Positions 5,722 through 58,534 of a stretch of 64,000 nt of DNA are shown one piece after another (within the stretch, counting starts at the first letter, position 1; each line of letters opens with the position of its first letter). Below the pieces are notes generated by a model. It worked only from the letters and a program-made list of their open reading frames with translations, ran no database searches and was not told the DNA's origin. A program made the position numbers and the translations under genes. This DNA comes from an uncultured Acidimicrobiaceae bacterium (lineage in GTDB: Bacteria > Actinomycetota > Acidimicrobiia > Acidimicrobiales > Bog-793). The stretch is taken from NCBI GenBank assembly GCA_963838845.1, contig CAWISR010000003.1:1092322-1156321 (forward strand), read 5' to 3'.

Positions 5722-6573
5722 TCAGAGATCGAGGACGGTGCCGACGGCGGCGGCCTCGACGCGCGGAGGGGCGCTTTGGTACCGGGCGAGGATCGCGTCG
5801 ATCTGGTCGTCGGCGCGCTCGGGGTGGTGATGGATGAGCAGGACCCGACCGACCTCGGCGATCTCACCGAGACCGACCGCGTAGCCGTACGACGAGTGCC
5901 GCGGGTTTGGGCGGTTGGCCAACTCCTCGTCGGTGTACTCCGCATCGTGGAAGACAACCGCGCACCCCTTAGTCAGCGCGAGCGCGTCCTCGTGGTACAC
6001 GCCGAGTCCGCTCGGCCCGGGCCCGAGTCGCGTCGGGGCGTGGTCCCCGAGATAGGCGACGTTCGCGCCACCGTCTGAGATCCGGAAGCCGAAGGTCGGG
6101 CTGTCGGCATGCGGGATCTCGCGGGCCGAGATCGAGAAACCCTCGACTTTCATCTCACCCGCTGCAAGCCGTTGGTACTGCCACCGCCCTAACAGCTGGC
6201 TCGGCGTGATCGGGAAGAAGGGCGGCGAGAGGAACCTTTCGATGCTCTCTTCGACGCCATTGCGCGTCGGCGCGAACAGGTCGACCCGCGATCCTGCGTG
6301 GTTTCCGGCACCGAAGAACGGGAGACCCTGCGTGTGGCCAAAGTGCAAATGGCTGAGCAAAAGGGTCCCGGAGAACGGCTCGGACCCGAAGATCGTCGCC
6401 TCCGGTTGAAAGAAATCACCGACGAGTCGGATCCCGGTTCCGGCGTCGACGATGAGGCTCGGTCGCTCGCCGTCGTGGGCGAAGGCGAGGCACGCTGTGT
6501 GTCCGCCGTAGCGGGTGAATGCCGCTCCGGGTGCCGGAGTCATTCCCCGGACCCCGCACACCCAGATCCGCAC
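5722..6573 (-). CDS. MBL-fold metallo-hydrolase (paralog 1) with variant motif HLHFGH
   Basis: MRIWVCGVRGMTPAPGAAFTRYGGHTACL...[15 protein letters not shown]...HDAEY...LIHHHP. By eye it aligns at roughly half of its positions with the ORF at 55571-56404. Confidence 0.8.
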   Translation of the reverse strand: MRIWVCGVRGMTPAPGAAFTRYGGHTACLAFAHDGERPSLIVDAGTGIRLVGDFFQPEATIFGSEPFSGTLLLSHLHFGHTQGLPFFGAGNHAGSRVDLFAPTRNGVEESIERFLSPPFFPITPSQLLGRWQYQRLAAGEMKVEGFSISAREIPHADSPTFGFRISDGGANVAYLGDHAPTRLGPGPSGLGVYHEDALALTKGCAVVFHDAEYTDEELANRPNPRHSSYGYAVGLGEIAEVGRVLLIHHHPERADDQIDAILARYQSAPPRVEAAAVGTVLDL

Positions 6574-49055: not shown

Positions 49056-50054
49056 ATGATGCGCACCGAGGCTTCGGTTACTTCGATTTCGTGGATCCCT
49101 TCAGAGGCGATCAGCGGCGTCGCGGTGCGCGCGCCCTTCGACGTCGGGATCACGCACTACGACAACGCACCACCCGAGGTCGTGACCGACCTCGAGGAAC
49201 TCCGCGTCGCGGACCGCTTCCGCTTCGCGAACGAGTTGCGCGGATTCGTCGAGACCCAGAACGGCCGCATCGTCGACTACGGGCAATCGGGCGGTGGCGT
49301 GATCGGTTCGACGACGGTGCGGCTCGGCGGACTGCAGAAGACCTTCCAGGCGGTGCCGCTTCCCGACATCCGTCCCGATGCGGTCGTCACCGACCGCAGC
49401 GTCACCTTCGTCCAGACGGCCGGCGGACGGACAGGGATCCCCGCTCCGCGGCGTGTCCGACGCGCCCCGTTCGTGCAGTTGTCGGCGCCGCTCGTGTGGA
49501 CGACGCTGGCGCTCACGATCTTCGTCGACGGGCGCACTCGCATCGAGCTGCGCGGTGCGAGCCCGTTCCCGCGGCATTGGATCTATGGGCCGGACGGCAA
49601 GCTTGAGCAGAAGTCCGGTCTCATCGACTTCTCGACGTGGTACCGGCGCGCGTTCGGCGTCCACAGTCCGTGGGGCGACCGCGATTCGCGGGCGCTCACG
49701 ACCGCGATCGAGACCGCGCTCGAGCGCGAGCTTTCGACCGTGCTGATGAAAAGCGGCGAACGTCCGCGCGTCGCGACGGTTGCCGAGGGCTCGACGATCC
49801 TCGAACAAGGGGAGTCGGGGAACGAGCTGTTCTTGGTCCTCGACGGCGTCGTGCGCGTCGAGGTCGACGGCAAGCCACTCGTCGAATGCGGCCCAGGATC
49901 GGTCCACGGCGAGCGCGCCGCGCTCGAGGGCGGCAAGCGCACCGCGACGGTGCGTGCCGTGACGAAGTGCAAAGTTGCCTTCGCCTCGGCCGATCAGTTC
50001 GACAAGGACGTTCTCACAGAGCTCGCGAGCGGGCACCGACGGGAACTCGACTGA
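49056..50054 (+). CDS. Protein with unknown N-terminal domain (about 230 aa) and C-terminal cyclic-nucleotide-binding domain
   Basis: The C-terminal region is GSTILEQGESGNELFLVLDGVVRVEVDGKPLVECGPGSVHGERAALEGGKRTATVRAVTKCKVAF. It contains the phosphate-binding-cassette pattern G-E-x-A ... R-T-A. I did not recognise the N-terminal domain. Confidence 0.8.
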   Translation: MMRTEASVTSISWIPSEAISGVAVRAPFDVGITHYDNAPPEVVTDLEELRVADRFRFANELRGFVETQNGRIVDYGQSGGGVIGSTTVRLGGLQKTFQAVPLPDIRPDAVVTDRSVTFVQTAGGRTGIPAPRRVRRAPFVQLSAPLVWTTLALTIFVDGRTRIELRGASPFPRHWIYGPDGKLEQKSGLIDFSTWYRRAFGVHSPWGDRDSRALTTAIETALERELSTVLMKSGERPRVATVAEGSTILEQGESGNELFLVLDGVVRVEVDGKPLVECGPGSVHGERAALEGGKRTATVRAVTKCKVAFASADQFDKDVLTELASGHRRELD

Positions 50055-50055
50055 C

Positions 50056-51429
50056 ATGCCGACGCTCGAGGACGAACGAGCGGTCGCGGGAGGTGATCGT
50101 GGCGTCGGGGGGCCGACGATCACCGTCTTGCTCGCAGACGACAACCTGATTGTCCGAGAGGGCGTGAAAGCGCTGTTGGTACTGGAGCGCGACTTCGAAC
50201 TCGTTGGCACTGCCGGTGACTACGACGAGCTCGTCGCGGCGTCCGAGCGACTCGCCCCGCAGGTCGTCATCACCGACATCCGGATGCCGCCGAACTTTCA
50301 ACAGGAAGGCATCGACGCCGCGCACGAGATCCGCAAGCGCCACCCTGGCACCGGGATCGTCGTGCTCTCCCAGTTCGACGACCCCGAGTATGCGATCTCT
50401 CTCCTCGCCGAGGGCTCCGCGGGCTACGCGTACCTGTTGAAGGACCGCGTCGCCGAGGGTGACCAGCTCGCCCGGGCGGTGCGCACCGTCGCAACAGGGG
50501 GTTCGGTGCTCGACCCGGCGATCGTCGAGTCGATGGTCCATCCGGTCACCGACTCGGGAGGACTCGACGAGTCCGACGAGCAGCTGCTGAAGTTCGTCGC
50601 CGAGGGCCGACCGATCAAGGCGATCGCCGTCGCGACGAACACGACTCCCGCTGCGACCGCGGACGCCGTCGAGCGGCTGTTCCTGCGCCTCGCGAAGGAC
50701 GCGAGCAGCGGCAGCAAGCAGTCGCTTCGTCAGCTGCGCAAGCTGCACGAGGCGATCGTCGATCGCGAAGAACAAGGCGAATCGCTGAGCCGCCTACTGC
50801 CCGGTGGCGTCGCGCAAATGCTGCGCGACGAAGGATGCCGTCCCGGCGAGACGGTCCAGCTCACCGTCAGCGTCTTGATGTCGGACATCCGCGGGTACTC
50901 GACGATCGCCGAGCGCGCCGATCCGAGCGCGCTTGCCGGGCAGCTGAACGTGCATCGCGGCGAGATGAACCGAGCGGTCATCGGAGAAGGGGGCACCGTG
51001 ATGCAGTTCGTCGGCGACGCGGTGATGGCGGTCTTCGGGGCGCCGGTTCCGATCCCGGATCACCCGGACAGGGCGCTGCGCGCCGCGCTGGCGATGCACC
51101 GCGCGCAGGAGGCGGTGAACGTTCGCTGGCGCGATGAGGGTCTTGCCGAGTTCGGCCTCGGCATCGGGATCACGACCGGCGAGGTCGCCGCGGCATTGCT
51201 CGGATCGGACGAGCGCCTCGAGTACACGGTCGTCGGCGACACCGTGAACCTCGCTCAGCGGATCCAGCAGTGGGCAGAACCGGGAGAGACCGTCCTTTCC
51301 GACGCGACGTACCAGTCGTTGCTCGACCAGATCGCGGCGGAGCCGATCGCGCCGTCGACGGTGAAGGGGCGCTCAGGTTTGGTCGGCGCGTGGAAGGTGG
51401 CGGCACAAATGGCGGGAGTGGACCGATGA
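50056..51429 (+). CDS. NarL-type response regulator (REC plus LuxR-like HTH remnant) fused to a class III adenylate/guanylate cyclase domain
   Basis: REC: VLLADDNLIVREG...VVITDIRMPP...IVVLSQF...YLLKDR. HTH-like: DEQLLKFVAEGRPIKAIAVATNTTPAATADAVERLFLRLA. Cyclase: VLMSDIRGYST...GGTVMQFVGDAVMAVFG...EYTVVGDTVNLAQRIQ. The ATG lies 1 nt after the upstream stop. Confidence 0.85.
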   Translation: MPTLEDERAVAGGDRGVGGPTITVLLADDNLIVREGVKALLVLERDFELVGTAGDYDELVAASERLAPQVVITDIRMPPNFQQEGIDAAHEIRKRHPGTGIVVLSQFDDPEYAISLLAEGSAGYAYLLKDRVAEGDQLARAVRTVATGGSVLDPAIVESMVHPVTDSGGLDESDEQLLKFVAEGRPIKAIAVATNTTPAATADAVERLFLRLAKDASSGSKQSLRQLRKLHEAIVDREEQGESLSRLLPGGVAQMLRDEGCRPGETVQLTVSVLMSDIRGYSTIAERADPSALAGQLNVHRGEMNRAVIGEGGTVMQFVGDAVMAVFGAPVPIPDHPDRALRAALAMHRAQEAVNVRWRDEGLAEFGLGIGITTGEVAAALLGSDERLEYTVVGDTVNLAQRIQQWAEPGETVLSDATYQSLLDQIAAEPIAPSTVKGRSGLVGAWKVAAQMAGVDR

Positions 51430-52154
51430 GCGTGATGCAGGCACGTGGCGTGCGCAAGACGTATGAGACCGAGGGTGCCCCGGTGCGCGCGCTGCGGGGA
51501 GTCGACCTTGCGATGGGCGAAGGGGAGTTCGTCGCGATCATGGGACCGTCGGGCTGTGGCAAGTCGACGCTGTTGAACCTCATCGCAGGTCTCGACGTGC
51601 CAACCGATGGTGAGATCGTCGTCGCCGGAGAGGCGCTGTCCGGCATGGACGAGGACGATCTCGCGTTGATGCGCCGTCGCCACATCGGCATCGTCTTTCA
51701 GTTCTTCAACCTCTTGGAAGGGATGACCGTCCTCGAGAACGCGACGCTCCCCGCCGTCGTCGCCGGCCTGCGCCGTCGGCAGGCGGAGAGCAGGGCGCGT
51801 GATCTCCTCGACCTCCTCGGTCTCGCCGACAAGGCGCGCGCCGCTCCCGGACTGCTCTCAGGCGGGGAGCGCCAGCGCCTCGCCATCGCCCGCGCGCTCG
51901 CGAACGCGCCGACTCTGCTGCTCGCCGACGAGCCGACCGGCGCGCTCGACTCCGAAGGCGGATTCGAAGTTCTCGAGCTGTTCCGGCGGCTGCACGCCGG
52001 TGGCCAGTCAATCCTTCTCGTCACCCACGACGAGCACGTCGCCGCGCCGGCGTCGCGCCTCGTCCATATGCGCGACGGCCGCATCGAATCCGACGTCGAA
52101 CAGCGCGTGGAGCTCGCCGTCGAAGCGGAGATCGACGTCGCGATCTACGAATGA
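51426..52154 (+). CDS. ABC transporter ATP-binding protein (MacB/LolD/FtsE-like) with no adjacent permease gene
   Basis: Walker A GPSGCGKST, signature LSGGERQRLAIARAL, Walker B LLLADEPTGALD, H-loop LLVTHD. ATGA overlaps are present at both its 5' and 3' ends. Confidence 0.9.
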   Translation: MSVMQARGVRKTYETEGAPVRALRGVDLAMGEGEFVAIMGPSGCGKSTLLNLIAGLDVPTDGEIVVAGEALSGMDEDDLALMRRRHIGIVFQFFNLLEGMTVLENATLPAVVAGLRRRQAESRARDLLDLLGLADKARAAPGLLSGGERQRLAIARALANAPTLLLADEPTGALDSEGGFEVLELFRRLHAGGQSILLVTHDEHVAAPASRLVHMRDGRIESDVEQRVELAVEAEIDVAIYE

Positions 52155-54370
52155 TGGACGCCGCCCCGATCGTCGTCAGCCAGCTCGGTGTGCGCCGCGA
52201 ATCGGCGGCCCCGCCGGCGTCGCGTCGGCGCGTCGCGGTCGGGCCGACGTTGCTGCTCGCCGCGGTGGCGCTCGGGGGGGCCATCGCCGCGCCCGTGGTC
52301 GACCACCGCGGCGACCTTCTCACTCAAGTGGTCCGGGCGGTCGTCGTCGGGTGCTTCGCGATCGCCGGCGGATTCGCCCTCATGCTCCGGCCGAAGGAGC
52401 GCCAGCCGCTGCTCGTGCTCTCGGCGACGTTCGTCGCCGCTGCCGCGGTCGTCTCGGCGGCCCTCATTCAAGCCCACGCCCACCACGCCGCCGTCGCCGG
52501 GGGTCTCGTCGCGGTGGCGCGCCTTGTCGCGCCGGTGGCGCTCGCGATCTTGCCGATGTCGACGATGCACGTCCTGCTCGGCCTGCCGGACGGCACCTGC
52601 CGGCTGAGCCGCTTCGCGATCGGCGGCGGCTATCTCGTGGCGATCGGCGTCGGGCTCGGAATGTGGAGCGACAGGCCGGTGCTGCCGCTGTGGCCGGTCG
52701 GGGTCGAGCTCCTCGTCGCCGTGCCCATCGGGCTCTACGGCGCCAGGCGCCGCTATCGGCGCTCGGCAGGGCTCGAGCGCCAGCGGATGCAGTGGTTCGG
52801 GTGGGCGGTGTCCGTCGGGGTCGAGATCGTCGTCCTCGCCGAGGCGTTGCGCCTTTTTTGGGGCTGGCCGACGCGCGAAGCGCTCGTCGTCACGGTCGCC
52901 GCCGTGCCGATCGCGATCGCCGTCGCGGCGGGCGCGACGACCGTCATCGCGACGCGCATCGACCGCCTGCTCGCCTGGTCGGTCTCGGTCGCCGGTCTGA
53001 CCGGCGTCGTCGTCGTCGTGTACCTCATCGTCGTCTTGGGCATCGGACACGCGCCGACGAAACAGGAGCGGACGCTGCTCATCCTCTCGATGATTGCCGC
53101 GGCGGCGTCAGCGTTGATCTACGGGCCGGCGCGCACGCGCCTGAAGTCTTACGCGAACCGCATCGTCTACGGCGAGCGCGAGGCGCCCGACACCGTGCTA
53201 CGCACCTTCGCGACGCGCCTCACCCGCGCCATGCCGCTTGAGGAACTCTTGTTGCAGGTCGTCGAGTCGCTGCGCAAAACGCTTGCGCTCACCTCGGCCG
53301 AGATCTGGACCGGATCCGGCGGTGTGCTGGAACGCGCCGTGTCGGTGCCGGACGCACCCGGGGCGCGGATCGTGTTGAGTGCGAGCGAAGAGTCGGTGGT
53401 CGCCCGCGCCGGCGTCACGGGCAATGCGTGGCTTGAGATCTGGATGCCGCAGATCCTGAAGGGCCACGAAGGGTTTGCGATCCGCGTCGCGCCGACCACG
53501 CACTCGGGCCGCGTCCTCGGACTCGTCGTCGCGGCGCGCAAATCCGACGGCGAGCGCTTCAGCGAGGGCGACGACACGACGCTCGTCGAGCTCGCCCGGC
53601 AGCTCGGCCTCGCTCTCCACAACGTCGAGCTCGACTCGGCACTGCAGGAGTCACTCGACGAGGTGCGGCGACAAGCCGACGAACTGCGCGCCTCGAGAGC
53701 GCGGATCGTTGCCGCGTCGGATGCGGCGCGCCGCCAGATCGAGCGGAACCTCCACGACGGCGCGCAGCAGCACCTCGTCGCGCTCGCCGTCAACGTCCGT
53801 TTGGCGCGCCAGCTCGTCGAGTCCGACCCTGCGGGTTCTGTCGAGATCCTCGACGCACTCGGCGGTGAGCTGCAGGACGCGGTGCAGGAGCTGCGTGCGC
53901 TCGCGCACGGCATCTACCCGCCGCTGCTCGTCGACCGCGGCGTCGAAGAGGCGTTGCGGTCCGCGGCCTCGCGCGCCGCCATCCCAACCGAGGTCGAGGC
54001 CGAAGGTCTACGGCGCTATTCGCCGGAGGAGGAGGCGGCCGTCTACTTCTGCTGCATGGAGGCGCTGCAGAATGCCGGCAAACACGCGGGCGAGGGAGCG
54101 ACCGCCACCGTGCGAGTCCACGAACGCGAGGGGACGCTCTTTTTCGATGTCGTCGACAACGGCGCCGGATTCGACATGAACGGCGTGAAGGGGCACGGCG
54201 CGGGCTTCGTCAACATGCGCGACCGCGTCGGCGCGATCGGCGGCACGGTCTCGGTGCAGTCCTCGCCCGGGAAGGGAACGAAGATCTCCGGGCACTTGCC
54301 GCTGAGCGGGACGAACGAGCCGTCGACGAACGGTGCGACTGGCGTGGAGCGCTCGGCCCTCAGGACCTGA
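52151..54370 (+). CDS. Polytopic (about 10 TM) sensor histidine kinase with GAF-like domain, HisKA_3 and HATPase_c domains
   Basis: The N-terminal 330 aa are almost entirely hydrophobic helices. The central region resembles GAF (...LLLQVVESLRKTLALTSAEIW...GLVVAARK...). The H-box is RQIERNLHDGAQQHLVAL. ATPase motifs are EALQNAGKHAG..., DNGAGF and GHGAGFVNMRDRV. Confidence 0.88.
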   Translation: MMDAAPIVVSQLGVRRESAAPPASRRRVAVGPTLLLAAVALGGAIAAPVVDHRGDLLTQVVRAVVVGCFAIAGGFALMLRPKERQPLLVLSATFVAAAAVVSAALIQAHAHHAAVAGGLVAVARLVAPVALAILPMSTMHVLLGLPDGTCRLSRFAIGGGYLVAIGVGLGMWSDRPVLPLWPVGVELLVAVPIGLYGARRRYRRSAGLERQRMQWFGWAVSVGVEIVVLAEALRLFWGWPTREALVVTVAAVPIAIAVAAGATTVIATRIDRLLAWSVSVAGLTGVVVVVYLIVVLGIGHAPTKQERTLLILSMIAAAASALIYGPARTRLKSYANRIVYGEREAPDTVLRTFATRLTRAMPLEELLLQVVESLRKTLALTSAEIWTGSGGVLERAVSVPDAPGARIVLSASEESVVARAGVTGNAWLEIWMPQILKGHEGFAIRVAPTTHSGRVLGLVVAARKSDGERFSEGDDTTLVELARQLGLALHNVELDSALQESLDEVRRQADELRASRARIVAASDAARRQIERNLHDGAQQHLVALAVNVRLARQLVESDPAGSVEILDALGGELQDAVQELRALAHGIYPPLLVDRGVEEALRSAASRAAIPTEVEAEGLRRYSPEEEAAVYFCCMEALQNAGKHAGEGATATVRVHEREGTLFFDVVDNGAGFDMNGVKGHGAGFVNMRDRVGAIGGTVSVQSSPGKGTKISGHLPLSGTNEPSTNGATGVERSALRT

Positions 54371-55570: not shown

Positions 55571-56404
55571 TCAATCGAGCGTGATCAGCTGCCCCTGGGT
55601 CGCGGCGCGGACGGGCAGCGGCGCGTCCGTCAACTCCTTCACGATGGCGTCAACTTCGTCATCGGTGCGCGAGGGATCGTGGTGGAACAGAACGAGCTCG
55701 CGGGCCTTCGCCGCGGCGGCCAGGCCGACGGCGTACGGGTAGGCGGAGTGGCCGTAGTGCGCCTTCGTCGGCAGTTCCTCCGCCGTGTACTGCGAGTCGT
55801 GCAAGACGAGGTCGCAACCCTCGGTGAGCGCGAGCGCGGTGTCGTGGTACTCGCCAAAGCCGTCCGGGCCGGGACCGAGGTCGGTCGGGCAATGGTCGGA
55901 GAGGTAGGCGAGCGTGGAGTGGCCGTCCGAGACCCGATACCCGAAGGTCCGCCCGCCTCCGTGGGGGATGTCGAGTGCGAGGACCGAAAGCCCTTCGAGC
56001 TCGTGTTCCCCCGGTTCGAGCGGACGGAAGCTCCACGACCCCCTGAGGCCGCGGGGCGTGATCGGGAAGTGGGGCGGCGACATGAAGCGCTCGAAGATCT
56101 CTTCGCCGTGGGTTTGCGCCGGCAAGTAGGCGTCGACGCGGGCGTCTTCGCGGTCCGCCGAGGTGAAGAACGGCAGGCCCTGGGTGTGATCCCAGTGCAG
56201 ATGGCCGAAGAGGATCGAGCCGCGGAAGGGCTCACCCGCAAAGACGGCGTCGGCGGCGCGAATGCCCGTGCCGGCGTCGATGATGAGCGTCGGTGTGGCG
56301 CCATCTGAAGAGATCCCGACACAGGAGGTGTGGCCCCCGTAGCGGACGAAATCGGCGCCCGGGGTGGGCGTCGACCCCCGCGTGCCGAACAGATGGACGC
56401 GCAT
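55571..56404 (-). CDS. MBL-fold metallo-hydrolase (paralog 2) with canonical HLHWDH motif
   Basis: [29 protein letters not shown]...[15 protein letters not shown]...VLHDSQY...GHSAY...LFHHDP. It lies 69 nt upstream of the NarL regulator on the same strand. Confidence 0.85.
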
Positions 56405-56537
56405 CAGGAACCGACGTCCGGGCGACCGAACCCGCGATGGGGTGCAACGAGCACTTTTGTGGCCTTTCTCAGAGGGTCTCCAAGGATACGAGAAGTGGGT
56501 GATTCGACCCTACGCAACAAACGGACCGTACCCGCGG

Positions 56538-56566
56538 TTGCCGGGTCGGCGCGGCGACGGTATCGT
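56538..56566 (+). promoter_or_regulatory. Candidate sigma-A-type promoter of groES-groEL
   Basis: TTGCCG (56538-56543), an exact 17-nt spacer, then TATCGT (56561-56566), directly abutting the CIRCE operator. Confidence 0.5.
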
Positions 56567-56592
56567 TAGCACTCAGAGCAATAGAGTGCTAA
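56566..56592 (+). promoter_or_regulatory. CIRCE operator (HrcA binding site)
   Basis: TTAGCACTC-agagcaata-GAGTGCTAA is a perfect match to the TTAGCACTC-N9-GAGTGCTAA consensus, 24 nt upstream of the groES ATG. Confidence 0.92.
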
Positions 56593-56615
56593 CGAGCCCA
56601 AGGAGGCCCCCCAAG

Positions 56616-58534
<1,919 letters not shown>

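Follow-up and report, generated by a model that had tools for sequence, protein, structure and literature searches.

A conserved family of receiver-linked class III nucleotide cyclases with glutamine at the substrate-specifying position

Introduction

The closest described relatives of the enzyme reported here are bacterial class III nucleotide cyclases that share a polypeptide with regulatory domains. The substrate of a class III cyclase can usually be predicted from a pair of residues. The second of these is Asp in canonical adenylyl cyclases, Thr in those of class IIIb, and Cys or Gly in guanylyl cyclases. Among receiver-regulated enzymes, cyanobacterial CyaC is said, after work by Kasahara and Ohmori in 1999, to be controlled by phosphotransfer to a receiver in the same protein. 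Among enzymes with a LuxR-type helix-turn-helix (HTH), Rv0386 of Mycobacterium tuberculosis reportedly has the substrate pair Gln/Asn, as given by Castro et al. in 2005. PMC3466318 cites that work for an alternative substrate-binding mechanism of Rv0386. Here we analysed a cyclase gene located in a 64,000-nucleotide stretch of DNA from an uncultured Acidimicrobiaceae bacterium (GenBank assembly GCA_963838845.1, contig CAWISR010000003.1, positions 1,092,322 to 1,156,321 of the forward strand; hereafter, the window).

The encoded protein joins a NarL-type receiver (REC), a degenerate HTH, a helical segment and a class III catalytic domain. At the position that specifies the purine it carries Gln, and this is a conserved family trait rather than a peculiarity of one genome. 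By operon structure, the cyclase is linked to a HisKA_3-type histidine kinase and to a dedicated nucleotide-binding protein. From these comparisons, we consider it likely (probability about 0.7) that the gene product is a catalytically competent, homodimeric class III (IIIb-like) cyclase switched by a two-component phosphorelay.

Results

Catalytic domain and base-reading pair

The Pfam family Guanylate_cyc (PF00211) matches residues 270-441 of the protein (E = 2.8e-22; 79.6 bits against a cutoff of 21.9). In a phmmer search against all Protein Data Bank (PDB) sequences, the best match was the guanylyl cyclase Cya2 (2w01; E = 2.6e-27), and CyaB (3r5g) and CyaC (1wc0) were also retrieved, the three spanning E values from 1e-27 to 1e-21. 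The catalytic domain of the AlphaFold2 (AF2) model superimposes on Cya2, CyaC and CyaB in Foldseek with a template modelling score of about 0.85, a root-mean-square deviation of about 2 Å and E = 1e-17. In these alignments, D277, D321, N398 and R402 fall on the metal and transition-state residues of solved cyclases, and K437 lies within the VKGR motif. Both metal Asp residues, Asn398, Arg402 and the VKGR Lys are invariant in all homologues checked (34 aligned homologues and, for the catalytic residues, the 120 close homologues and 82 genomic loci as well).

The base-reading pair departs from the canonical states. Gln317 (GGTVMQFVGD) stands opposite the Glu of Cya2 (GGTIDEFMGD) and opposite the Lys of CyaB and CyaC (GTIDKFVGD and GTVDKFVGD). 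Thr391 (LEYTVVGD), at the second position, is opposite the Thr of CyaB and CyaC and opposite the Gly of Cya2. Hence, the pair is neither Lys with Asp or Thr, as in adenylyl cyclases, nor Glu with Cys, Ser or Gly, as in guanylyl cyclases. The initial annotation, made from the sequence of the window alone, had assigned Gln to the Lys/Glu position and Thr to the second one, and had recognised both metal Asp residues and the N..R transition-state pair. This motif register is borne out by the alignments to Cya2, CyaB and CyaC, in which the protein has no Lys at the specificity position. The annotation had also held that the product could not be predicted from the Gln/Thr pair, and we concur: Thr is the state of class IIIb adenylyl cyclases, whereas Gln is an isostere of the guanylyl cyclase Glu.

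A conserved Gln clade and its Lys/Thr sister clade

A public protein from a 218-kb metagenomic contig (P0001) is 100% identical to the cyclase and of equal length. To describe the distribution of the family, we used a species-level scan with one genome per species, which gave at least 582 tblastn-confirmed stretches, including sister-clade relatives matched only by their receiver-domain pattern. Taxonomy is taken from the best 80 of these stretches, and the counts of neighbouring genes and residues given below rest on 82 genomic loci. The closest named genomes among the best 80 are metagenome-assembled genomes of Acidimicrobiales (91-96% identity). Overall, the cyclase gene belongs to a large and strongly conserved family, far beyond chance.

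All of the 120 best homologues (72-100% identity, about 450 residues, REC plus cyclase) carry GT(V/L)MQFVGD together with Thr. The best 80 loci, at 63-96% identity, belong to Acidimicrobiales, Microthrixaceae, Nitriliruptorales, Egibacteraceae, Nocardioidaceae, Streptosporangiaceae, Gaiellaceae and Candidatus Dormibacterota, and the 82 loci of this Gln clade are distributed over two phyla, Actinomycetota and Dormibacterota. D74, D277, Q317, D321, N398 and R402 are invariant in 82 of 82 loci. Thr occupies position 391 in 50 loci, with Ser in the other 32, and the residue preceding the Gln is Met in 81. Among representatives of clusters built at 50% identity, the specificity pairs are QT (23), QS (17), KT (3), VT (2) and EG (1).

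In five relatives of about 600 residues (P0151, P0158, P0173, P0221 and P0243), a multi-pass membrane N-terminus with a weak HisKA_7TM match replaces the receiver and the HTH. Their cyclase domains are 50-63% identical and keep Gln with Thr or Ser. Since these membrane-type proteins carry the same Gln, the Gln pocket is not tied to the receiver architecture.

A sister clade found in Actinomycetota (the P0128 family) has the same succession of receiver, HTH remnant, helical segment and cyclase at about 45% identity. It keeps Lys and Thr: the motif GT(I/L)DKF is present in 114 of its 120 members, with a Lys conservation of 0.99, so that the DK of the sister clade corresponds to MQ in the Gln clade. 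At all five sister-clade loci examined (L083-L087), the divergent neighbour of the cyclase is a canonical REC+GerE regulator, and no cyclic-nucleotide-binding gene was found within 5-7 kb (0 of 5). Two HisKA_3 kinases in tandem and a gene for a Usp/UbiB-type kinase are also often found in their vicinity.

Receiver, helix-turn-helix remnant and helical segment

The receiver is matched by Pfam Response_reg over residues 24-124 (E = 1.9e-14). The phospho-acceptor D74 (codon 50275-50277) is invariant across the 34 aligned homologues, and so are D28, D29, S105, Y126 and K129. Residues 21-161, comprising the receiver and its alpha-6 linker, are 52% identical (E = 6e-47) to a canonical REC+GerE regulator, whose gene lies 3.4 kb downstream and on the opposite strand. 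In addition, the NCBIfam models MctR, MadR and NarL give partial matches that reach beyond the receiver; these models and the NarL-family chains of the PDB align up to residue ~200-216. The identity to the neighbouring regulator suggests that the protein arose when a NarL-type regulator was duplicated and the last helix of one copy was joined to a cyclase. The pairing of sister-clade cyclases with a REC+GerE regulator fits an origin by duplication of that regulator.

A segment that resembles a degenerate LuxR/GerE-type HTH follows the receiver. Searches of the isolated middle segment against Pfam gave no GerE match and only sub-threshold HTH_7 and RuvB_C matches. We built a profile of residues 140-245 from 19 family members and searched it against the PDB. 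Its top matches are NarL-family HTH domains only, with VraR at E = 0.0012; the isolated DNA-binding domain of NarL is matched in register (1je8, E = 0.007; 8u3b, E = 0.006). A profile of the HTH segment combining the Gln and Lys clades was then aligned by hhalign with GerE domains from the canonical regulators encoded at the same loci, at 96.6% probability (E = 5e-10, 45 ungapped columns). The helices that AF2 predicts, at low confidence, at residues 172-182, 187-193, 198-217 and 221-238 follow the GerE pattern.

NarL contacts DNA bases via Lys188, Val189 and Lys192, and the backbone via His190 (PMC10853779). These four positions align to A202, D203, E206 and A204 of the cyclase protein, respectively. 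The segment is nevertheless strongly conserved, with many invariant residues in the 34 homologues, including K188 and E206. Because the contact positions read Ala/Asp/Ala/Glu, we infer that canonical DNA binding by the HTH remnant was lost.

Between the HTH remnant and the catalytic domain lies a helical segment with the invariant motif REEQGE.LSRLLPGGVA. It aligns both with the fourth GerE helix, in a MAFFT alignment to the canonical regulator, and with the helical domains that precede class III cyclases. Several PDB matches (5o5k, 7yz9, 4p2f, 9bcv and 6jt0, which include GC-A and sGC) begin at residues 227-233 of the protein. The last helix of the LuxR-type domain runs into the helical segment preceding the catalytic domain.

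Taken together, Pfam, the PDB profile search and hhalign uphold the domain order proposed in the initial annotation, namely receiver, LuxR-like HTH remnant and class III cyclase. That annotation had called this order unusual. It is so relative to characterised enzymes but not in genomes, where it is common (at least 582 stretches, sister-clade relatives included) and also occurs in the Lys/Thr sister clade.

Operon and neighbouring genes

Four genes lie tightly packed and encode, in this order, a cyclic-nucleotide-binding protein, the cyclase, an ATP-binding cassette (ABC) ATPase and a histidine kinase (Table 1). The stop codon of the first gene ends 1 nucleotide before the cyclase ATG. The ATG of the ABC ATPase overlaps the cyclase stop (ATGA; cyclase stop codon at 51427-51429), and its own stop overlaps the kinase ATG in the same manner (ATGA). 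For the cyclase, a strong GGAGG at ~50090 was considered as the mark of an alternative start, but no in-frame start follows it and the ATG at 50056 was retained. The G+C content is 63-71% along the whole length of the window.

Table 1 Features of the cyclase gene and its surroundings (window coordinates)
Feature	Position	Strand	Evidence
Cyclic-nucleotide-binding partner, 332 residues	49056..50054	+	Pfam cNMP_binding, E 8.2e-16
Cyclase gene, 457 residues (REC / HTH remnant / helical segment / class III cyclase)	50056..51429	+	Open reading frame (ORF), Pfam, identical public protein
Receiver domain and NarL-type alpha-6 linker (residues 21-161)	50116..50538	+	Identity to neighbouring regulator, invariant columns
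Degenerate LuxR/GerE-type HTH (residues ~168-217)	50557..50706	+	PDB profile search, hhalign, AF2 secondary structure
Helical segment / cyclase transducer region (residues ~221-262)	50716..50841	+	PDB matches, MAFFT alignment, invariant columns
Class III cyclase catalytic domain (residues ~266-450)	50851..51405	+	PF00211, phmmer against PDB, Foldseek
Metal residue D277	50884-50886	+	Alignment to solved cyclases
Gln317 codon CAG, position of the purine-specifying Lys (adenylyl) or Glu (guanylyl cyclases)	51004..51006	+	Alignments, 120 homologues, 82 loci
Metal residue D321	51016-51018	+	Alignment to solved cyclases
Thr391 codon, second specificity position	51226..51228	+	Alignments, 82 loci
Transition-state N398	51247-51249	+	Alignment to solved cyclases
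Transition-state R402	51259-51261	+	Alignment to solved cyclases
ABC-transporter ATPase, MacB/LolD/FtsE type	51426..52154	+	Pfam ABC_tran, NCBIfam
Sensor histidine kinase, presumed cognate	52151..54370	+	Pfam GAF, HisKA_3, HATPase_c; NCBIfam MctS-like partial match
Stand-alone receiver protein, 146 residues	54360..54800	-	Response_reg, E 3e-22; syntenic in most loci
Canonical NarL-type regulator, REC + GerE, 222 residues	54833..55501	-	Pfam; paralogue of the cyclase N-terminal half
Metallo-beta-lactamase-fold protein, 277 residues	55571..56404	-	Pfam Lactamase_B_2
groEL	56909-58534	as groES, which it follows	ORF

The cyclic-nucleotide-binding partner belongs to a large conserved family of about 331 residues. 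It is present in 68 of the 82 Gln-clade loci and lies directly upstream of the cyclase in 52 of 75; in 47 of these loci the two genes are divergent, and in 5, the closest relatives of the window, they are co-directional. The partner consists of an N-terminal all-beta domain (residues ~1-190) and a C-terminal cyclic-nucleotide-binding domain, whose phosphate-binding cassette reads GERAALEGGKRTATVRA. The cassette GERAxLEGGxRT(A/S)TVRA is invariant across the partner family. Foldseek searches with the AF2 model of the partner match the nucleotide-binding domain only. Residues 1-190 (49056-49625), modelled as all-beta with a predicted local distance difference test (pLDDT) score of up to 95, have no match in Pfam, NCBIfam, PDB sequences or PDB structures searched with Foldseek. 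The all-beta domain is conserved and presumably provides the output of the receptor.

The kinase contains a membrane region at residues 27-328, with about 9-10 hydrophobic segments in a hydropathy scan. Kinases of the HisKA_3 class are those that pair with receivers of NarL type. In 35 of 69 loci, the gene directly downstream of the cyclase is that of the ABC ATPase. No permease gene adjoins it in the window; in one related genome (L002, 1993-4699, minus strand), genes for FtsX-type permeases are located just upstream, on the opposite strand. By analogy with Bce-type sensing, the ABC ATPase may work with the membrane domain of the kinase or with a distant permease.

Convergent with the four-gene operon are the genes of the stand-alone receiver, the REC+GerE regulator and a metallo-beta-lactamase (MBL)-fold protein. 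If the listed ORF ends are real, the stand-alone receiver gene overlaps the 3' end of the kinase gene by 11 nucleotides (54360-54370). The kinase, the ABC ATPase, the stand-alone receiver and the REC+GerE regulator recur together in related genomes. An MBL-fold gene is found within 3.2 kb upstream, adjoining the partner gene, in 26 of 65 loci. Two NCBIfam models match the MBL protein near the cyclase weakly, one for RNase Z (E = 2.5e-11) and one for a phosphodiesterase that degrades cyclic nucleotides (E = 1.1e-8); judging from these matches, the protein is possibly a cyclic-nucleotide phosphodiesterase. The window holds two MBL-fold paralogues that are 49% identical (5725-6573 and 55571-56404, both on the minus strand).

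The core genes tsaD and groES/groEL are located near the locus. The groES ORF (56364-56909, plus strand) is listed with 181 residues, of which only residues 87-179 match Cpn10; translation probably begins well past the first GTG.

Discussion

Proposed mechanism

Phosphorylation of NarL sets its C-terminal helical bundle free or changes the orientation of the bundle (PMC10853779). On this basis, the gene product could be activated as follows. The HisKA_3 kinase, encoded two genes downstream, would phosphorylate D74, and phosphorylation would, as in the NarL family, release or re-orient the helical bundle of the cyclase protein. The bundle, no longer binding DNA, would instead mediate dimerisation and relay, fixing the register of the helical segment and closing the two catalytic domains into the active dimer. 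The product would be a purine 3',5'-cyclic nucleotide read by the adjacent cyclic-nucleotide-binding protein and possibly degraded by the syntenic MBL-fold protein. In this family, a domain that once bound DNA would thus have been put to use between a receiver and an enzyme, as a module for signal relay or dimerisation.

Several observations weigh against parts of this scheme. Pfam GerE (PF00196) does not match the HTH segment even at E up to 10. The AF2 pLDDT in the HTH and helical region is only ~35-65, so that the relay geometry has no structural support. The phosphodiesterase match of the MBL protein scores 34.7 bits against a cutoff of 400, far below it. Finally, the Gln and Lys clades differ at 54 conserved positions that are evenly distributed along the protein and not enriched in the nucleotide pocket, and the change from Lys to Gln could be tolerated drift in an ordinary adenylyl cyclase. 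We had considered M275, M316, T373 and T396 as evidence of a new specificity; these candidates were set aside, as the differences between clades are not concentrated in the pocket.

Product and alternative readings

As regards the product, we lean somewhat towards cyclic AMP (cAMP) as the main one. Cyclic GMP (cGMP), alone or in a dual output, has distinctly lower odds, and a product other than these two is improbable. Through its amide, Gln can pair with adenine (N1/N6) or, once flipped, with guanine (N1-H/O6), much as in the glutamine switch known from cyclic-nucleotide phosphodiesterases. For the Gln cyclase, a side activity with GTP, or even a preference for GTP, is plausible.

The best-surviving alternative, which we hold only tentatively, is that the Gln clade makes cGMP, or cAMP and cGMP with similar efficiency, in a channel insulated from the cAMP pool, with its own receptor and possibly its own phosphodiesterase. 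It draws on the likeness of Gln to the guanylyl cyclase Glu and on Cya2 being the best PDB sequence match. The second position speaks for the other side, its Thr or Ser being the class IIIb adenylyl cyclase state. Gln is invariant, the preceding Met nearly so, and both replace the DK of the sister clade; yet the clade-specific changes as a whole show no pocket enrichment. The replacement of Lys coincides with a nucleotide-binding neighbour (68 of 82 Gln-clade loci versus 0 of 5 Lys-clade loci), and this coincidence with the gain of a dedicated receptor is suggestive, with only five sister-clade loci in the sample. In the receptor, the cassette reads RT(A/S)T. A Thr after the cassette Arg favours cGMP in protein kinase G and in cyclic-nucleotide-gated channels, but cassettes of the RT(A/S)T type also occur in bacterial cAMP receptors. 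Castro et al. (2005) reportedly observed a guanylyl cyclase side activity in Rv0386, which is said to be mainly an adenylyl cyclase; no other characterised enzyme is known to carry Gln at this position. It is possible, if doubtful, that the invariant Met-Gln marks a cyclase clade whose physiological product is not cAMP but cGMP or a dual purine output. If true, there would be a private messenger circuit in Acidimicrobiia, other Actinomycetota and Dormibacterota, whose four elements would be the two-component input, the Gln cyclase itself, a dedicated receptor bearing a new all-beta output domain, and a phosphodiesterase of the MBL fold.

It is improbable that the protein is bifunctional, a transcription factor and a cyclase at once, with an HTH that still binds DNA. 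Strong purifying selection on the HTH, with invariant K188 and E206, and the retained GerE helix pattern would fit such a role. However, the four positions of the NarL contacts are Ala, Asp, Ala and Glu, Pfam GerE finds no match, the fourth helix continues into the helical segment of the cyclase, and a canonical REC+GerE paralogue next door is available for transcriptional output.

An antiphage system of the Pycsar/Pucsar type, formed by the cyclase and the cyclic-nucleotide-binding protein, is very unlikely. PADLOC models of PycC match the cyclase (best E = 2.5e-21), and those of PycTIR and effectors match the nucleotide-binding domain of the partner; these are generic, domain-level matches, and the 74 bits of PADLOC are no better than the 79.6 bits of the generic PF00211. 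Moreover, the partner has no TIR, membrane or other killing domain, and control of the cyclase would fall to a two-component system. With synteny at 63-96% identity across hundreds of genomes of two phyla, beside core genes, the locus is core-like, whereas defence islands are patchy. Pycsar-type defence was rejected on these grounds. Equally little speaks for a catalytically dead scaffold: the canonical substrate Lys is missing, but both metal Asp residues, Asn398, Arg402 and VKGR are invariant in all homologues examined, and Rv0386, with Gln at the same position, is reportedly active.

Significance

The Gln family breaks the two-residue rule in a conserved way, across 120 close homologues, 82 loci and two phyla, and the sister clade, having kept Lys, can serve as a natural control. 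Since the cyclase is encoded alongside its presumed kinase, a dedicated receptor and a candidate phosphodiesterase, a small recombinant set could tell what Gln specifies. Two questions come within reach, namely whether bacterial cGMP or dual-purine signalling is commoner than thought, and what the all-beta output domain of the receptor does. Should the enzyme simply make cAMP, the value would be smaller, that of a second natural example, after Rv0386, of a dispensable Lys.

Comparison with known systems

With CyaC of Spirulina, CyaB of Pseudomonas aeruginosa and Cya2 of Synechocystis, the Gln cyclase shares the homodimer-type active site and, with CyaC and CyaB, the Thr at the second position. 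It differs from these enzymes, which have Lys or Glu instead of Gln317, Asp instead of M316 and other regulatory domains. Cyanobacterial CyaC, ordered receiver / kinase / receiver / cyclase, is likewise a receiver-regulated class III cyclase. Its receivers, however, are not of NarL type, no HTH remnant precedes its cyclase, and its pair is Lys/Thr.

The M. tuberculosis protein Rv0386, with Rv1358 and Rv2488c, also combines a LuxR-type HTH and a cyclase in one polypeptide. The order is reversed, with the cyclase first, then an ATPase and a canonical LuxR domain last, and there is no receiver; the second residue is reportedly Asn, as compared with Thr or Ser in the Gln clade. The Gln cyclase reads REC / HTH / cyclase and has no ATPase, and it therefore falls outside the Rv0386 type. 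The Rv0386-type architecture is restricted to Mycobacterium (PMC3466318). Given Rv0386, Gln at the specificity position is rare rather than unprecedented.

The NarL/FixJ regulators (NarL, VraR, DesR and DevR, and the MctR and MadR models) have a homologous receiver, alpha-6 linker and four-helix C-terminal domain, and their likeness extends to the likely kinase partner of the Gln cyclase, which is of HisKA_3 type. In contrast to them, the Gln cyclase has lost the DNA-contact residues, escapes the Pfam GerE model and bears a cyclase appended to its last helix. The cyclases of the Lys/Thr sister clade, like the Gln cyclase, adjoin a canonical REC+GerE paralogue and HisKA_3 kinases. Overall, the Gln cyclases form an abundant, uncharacterised variant of receiver-controlled class III cyclases and not a new kind of system.

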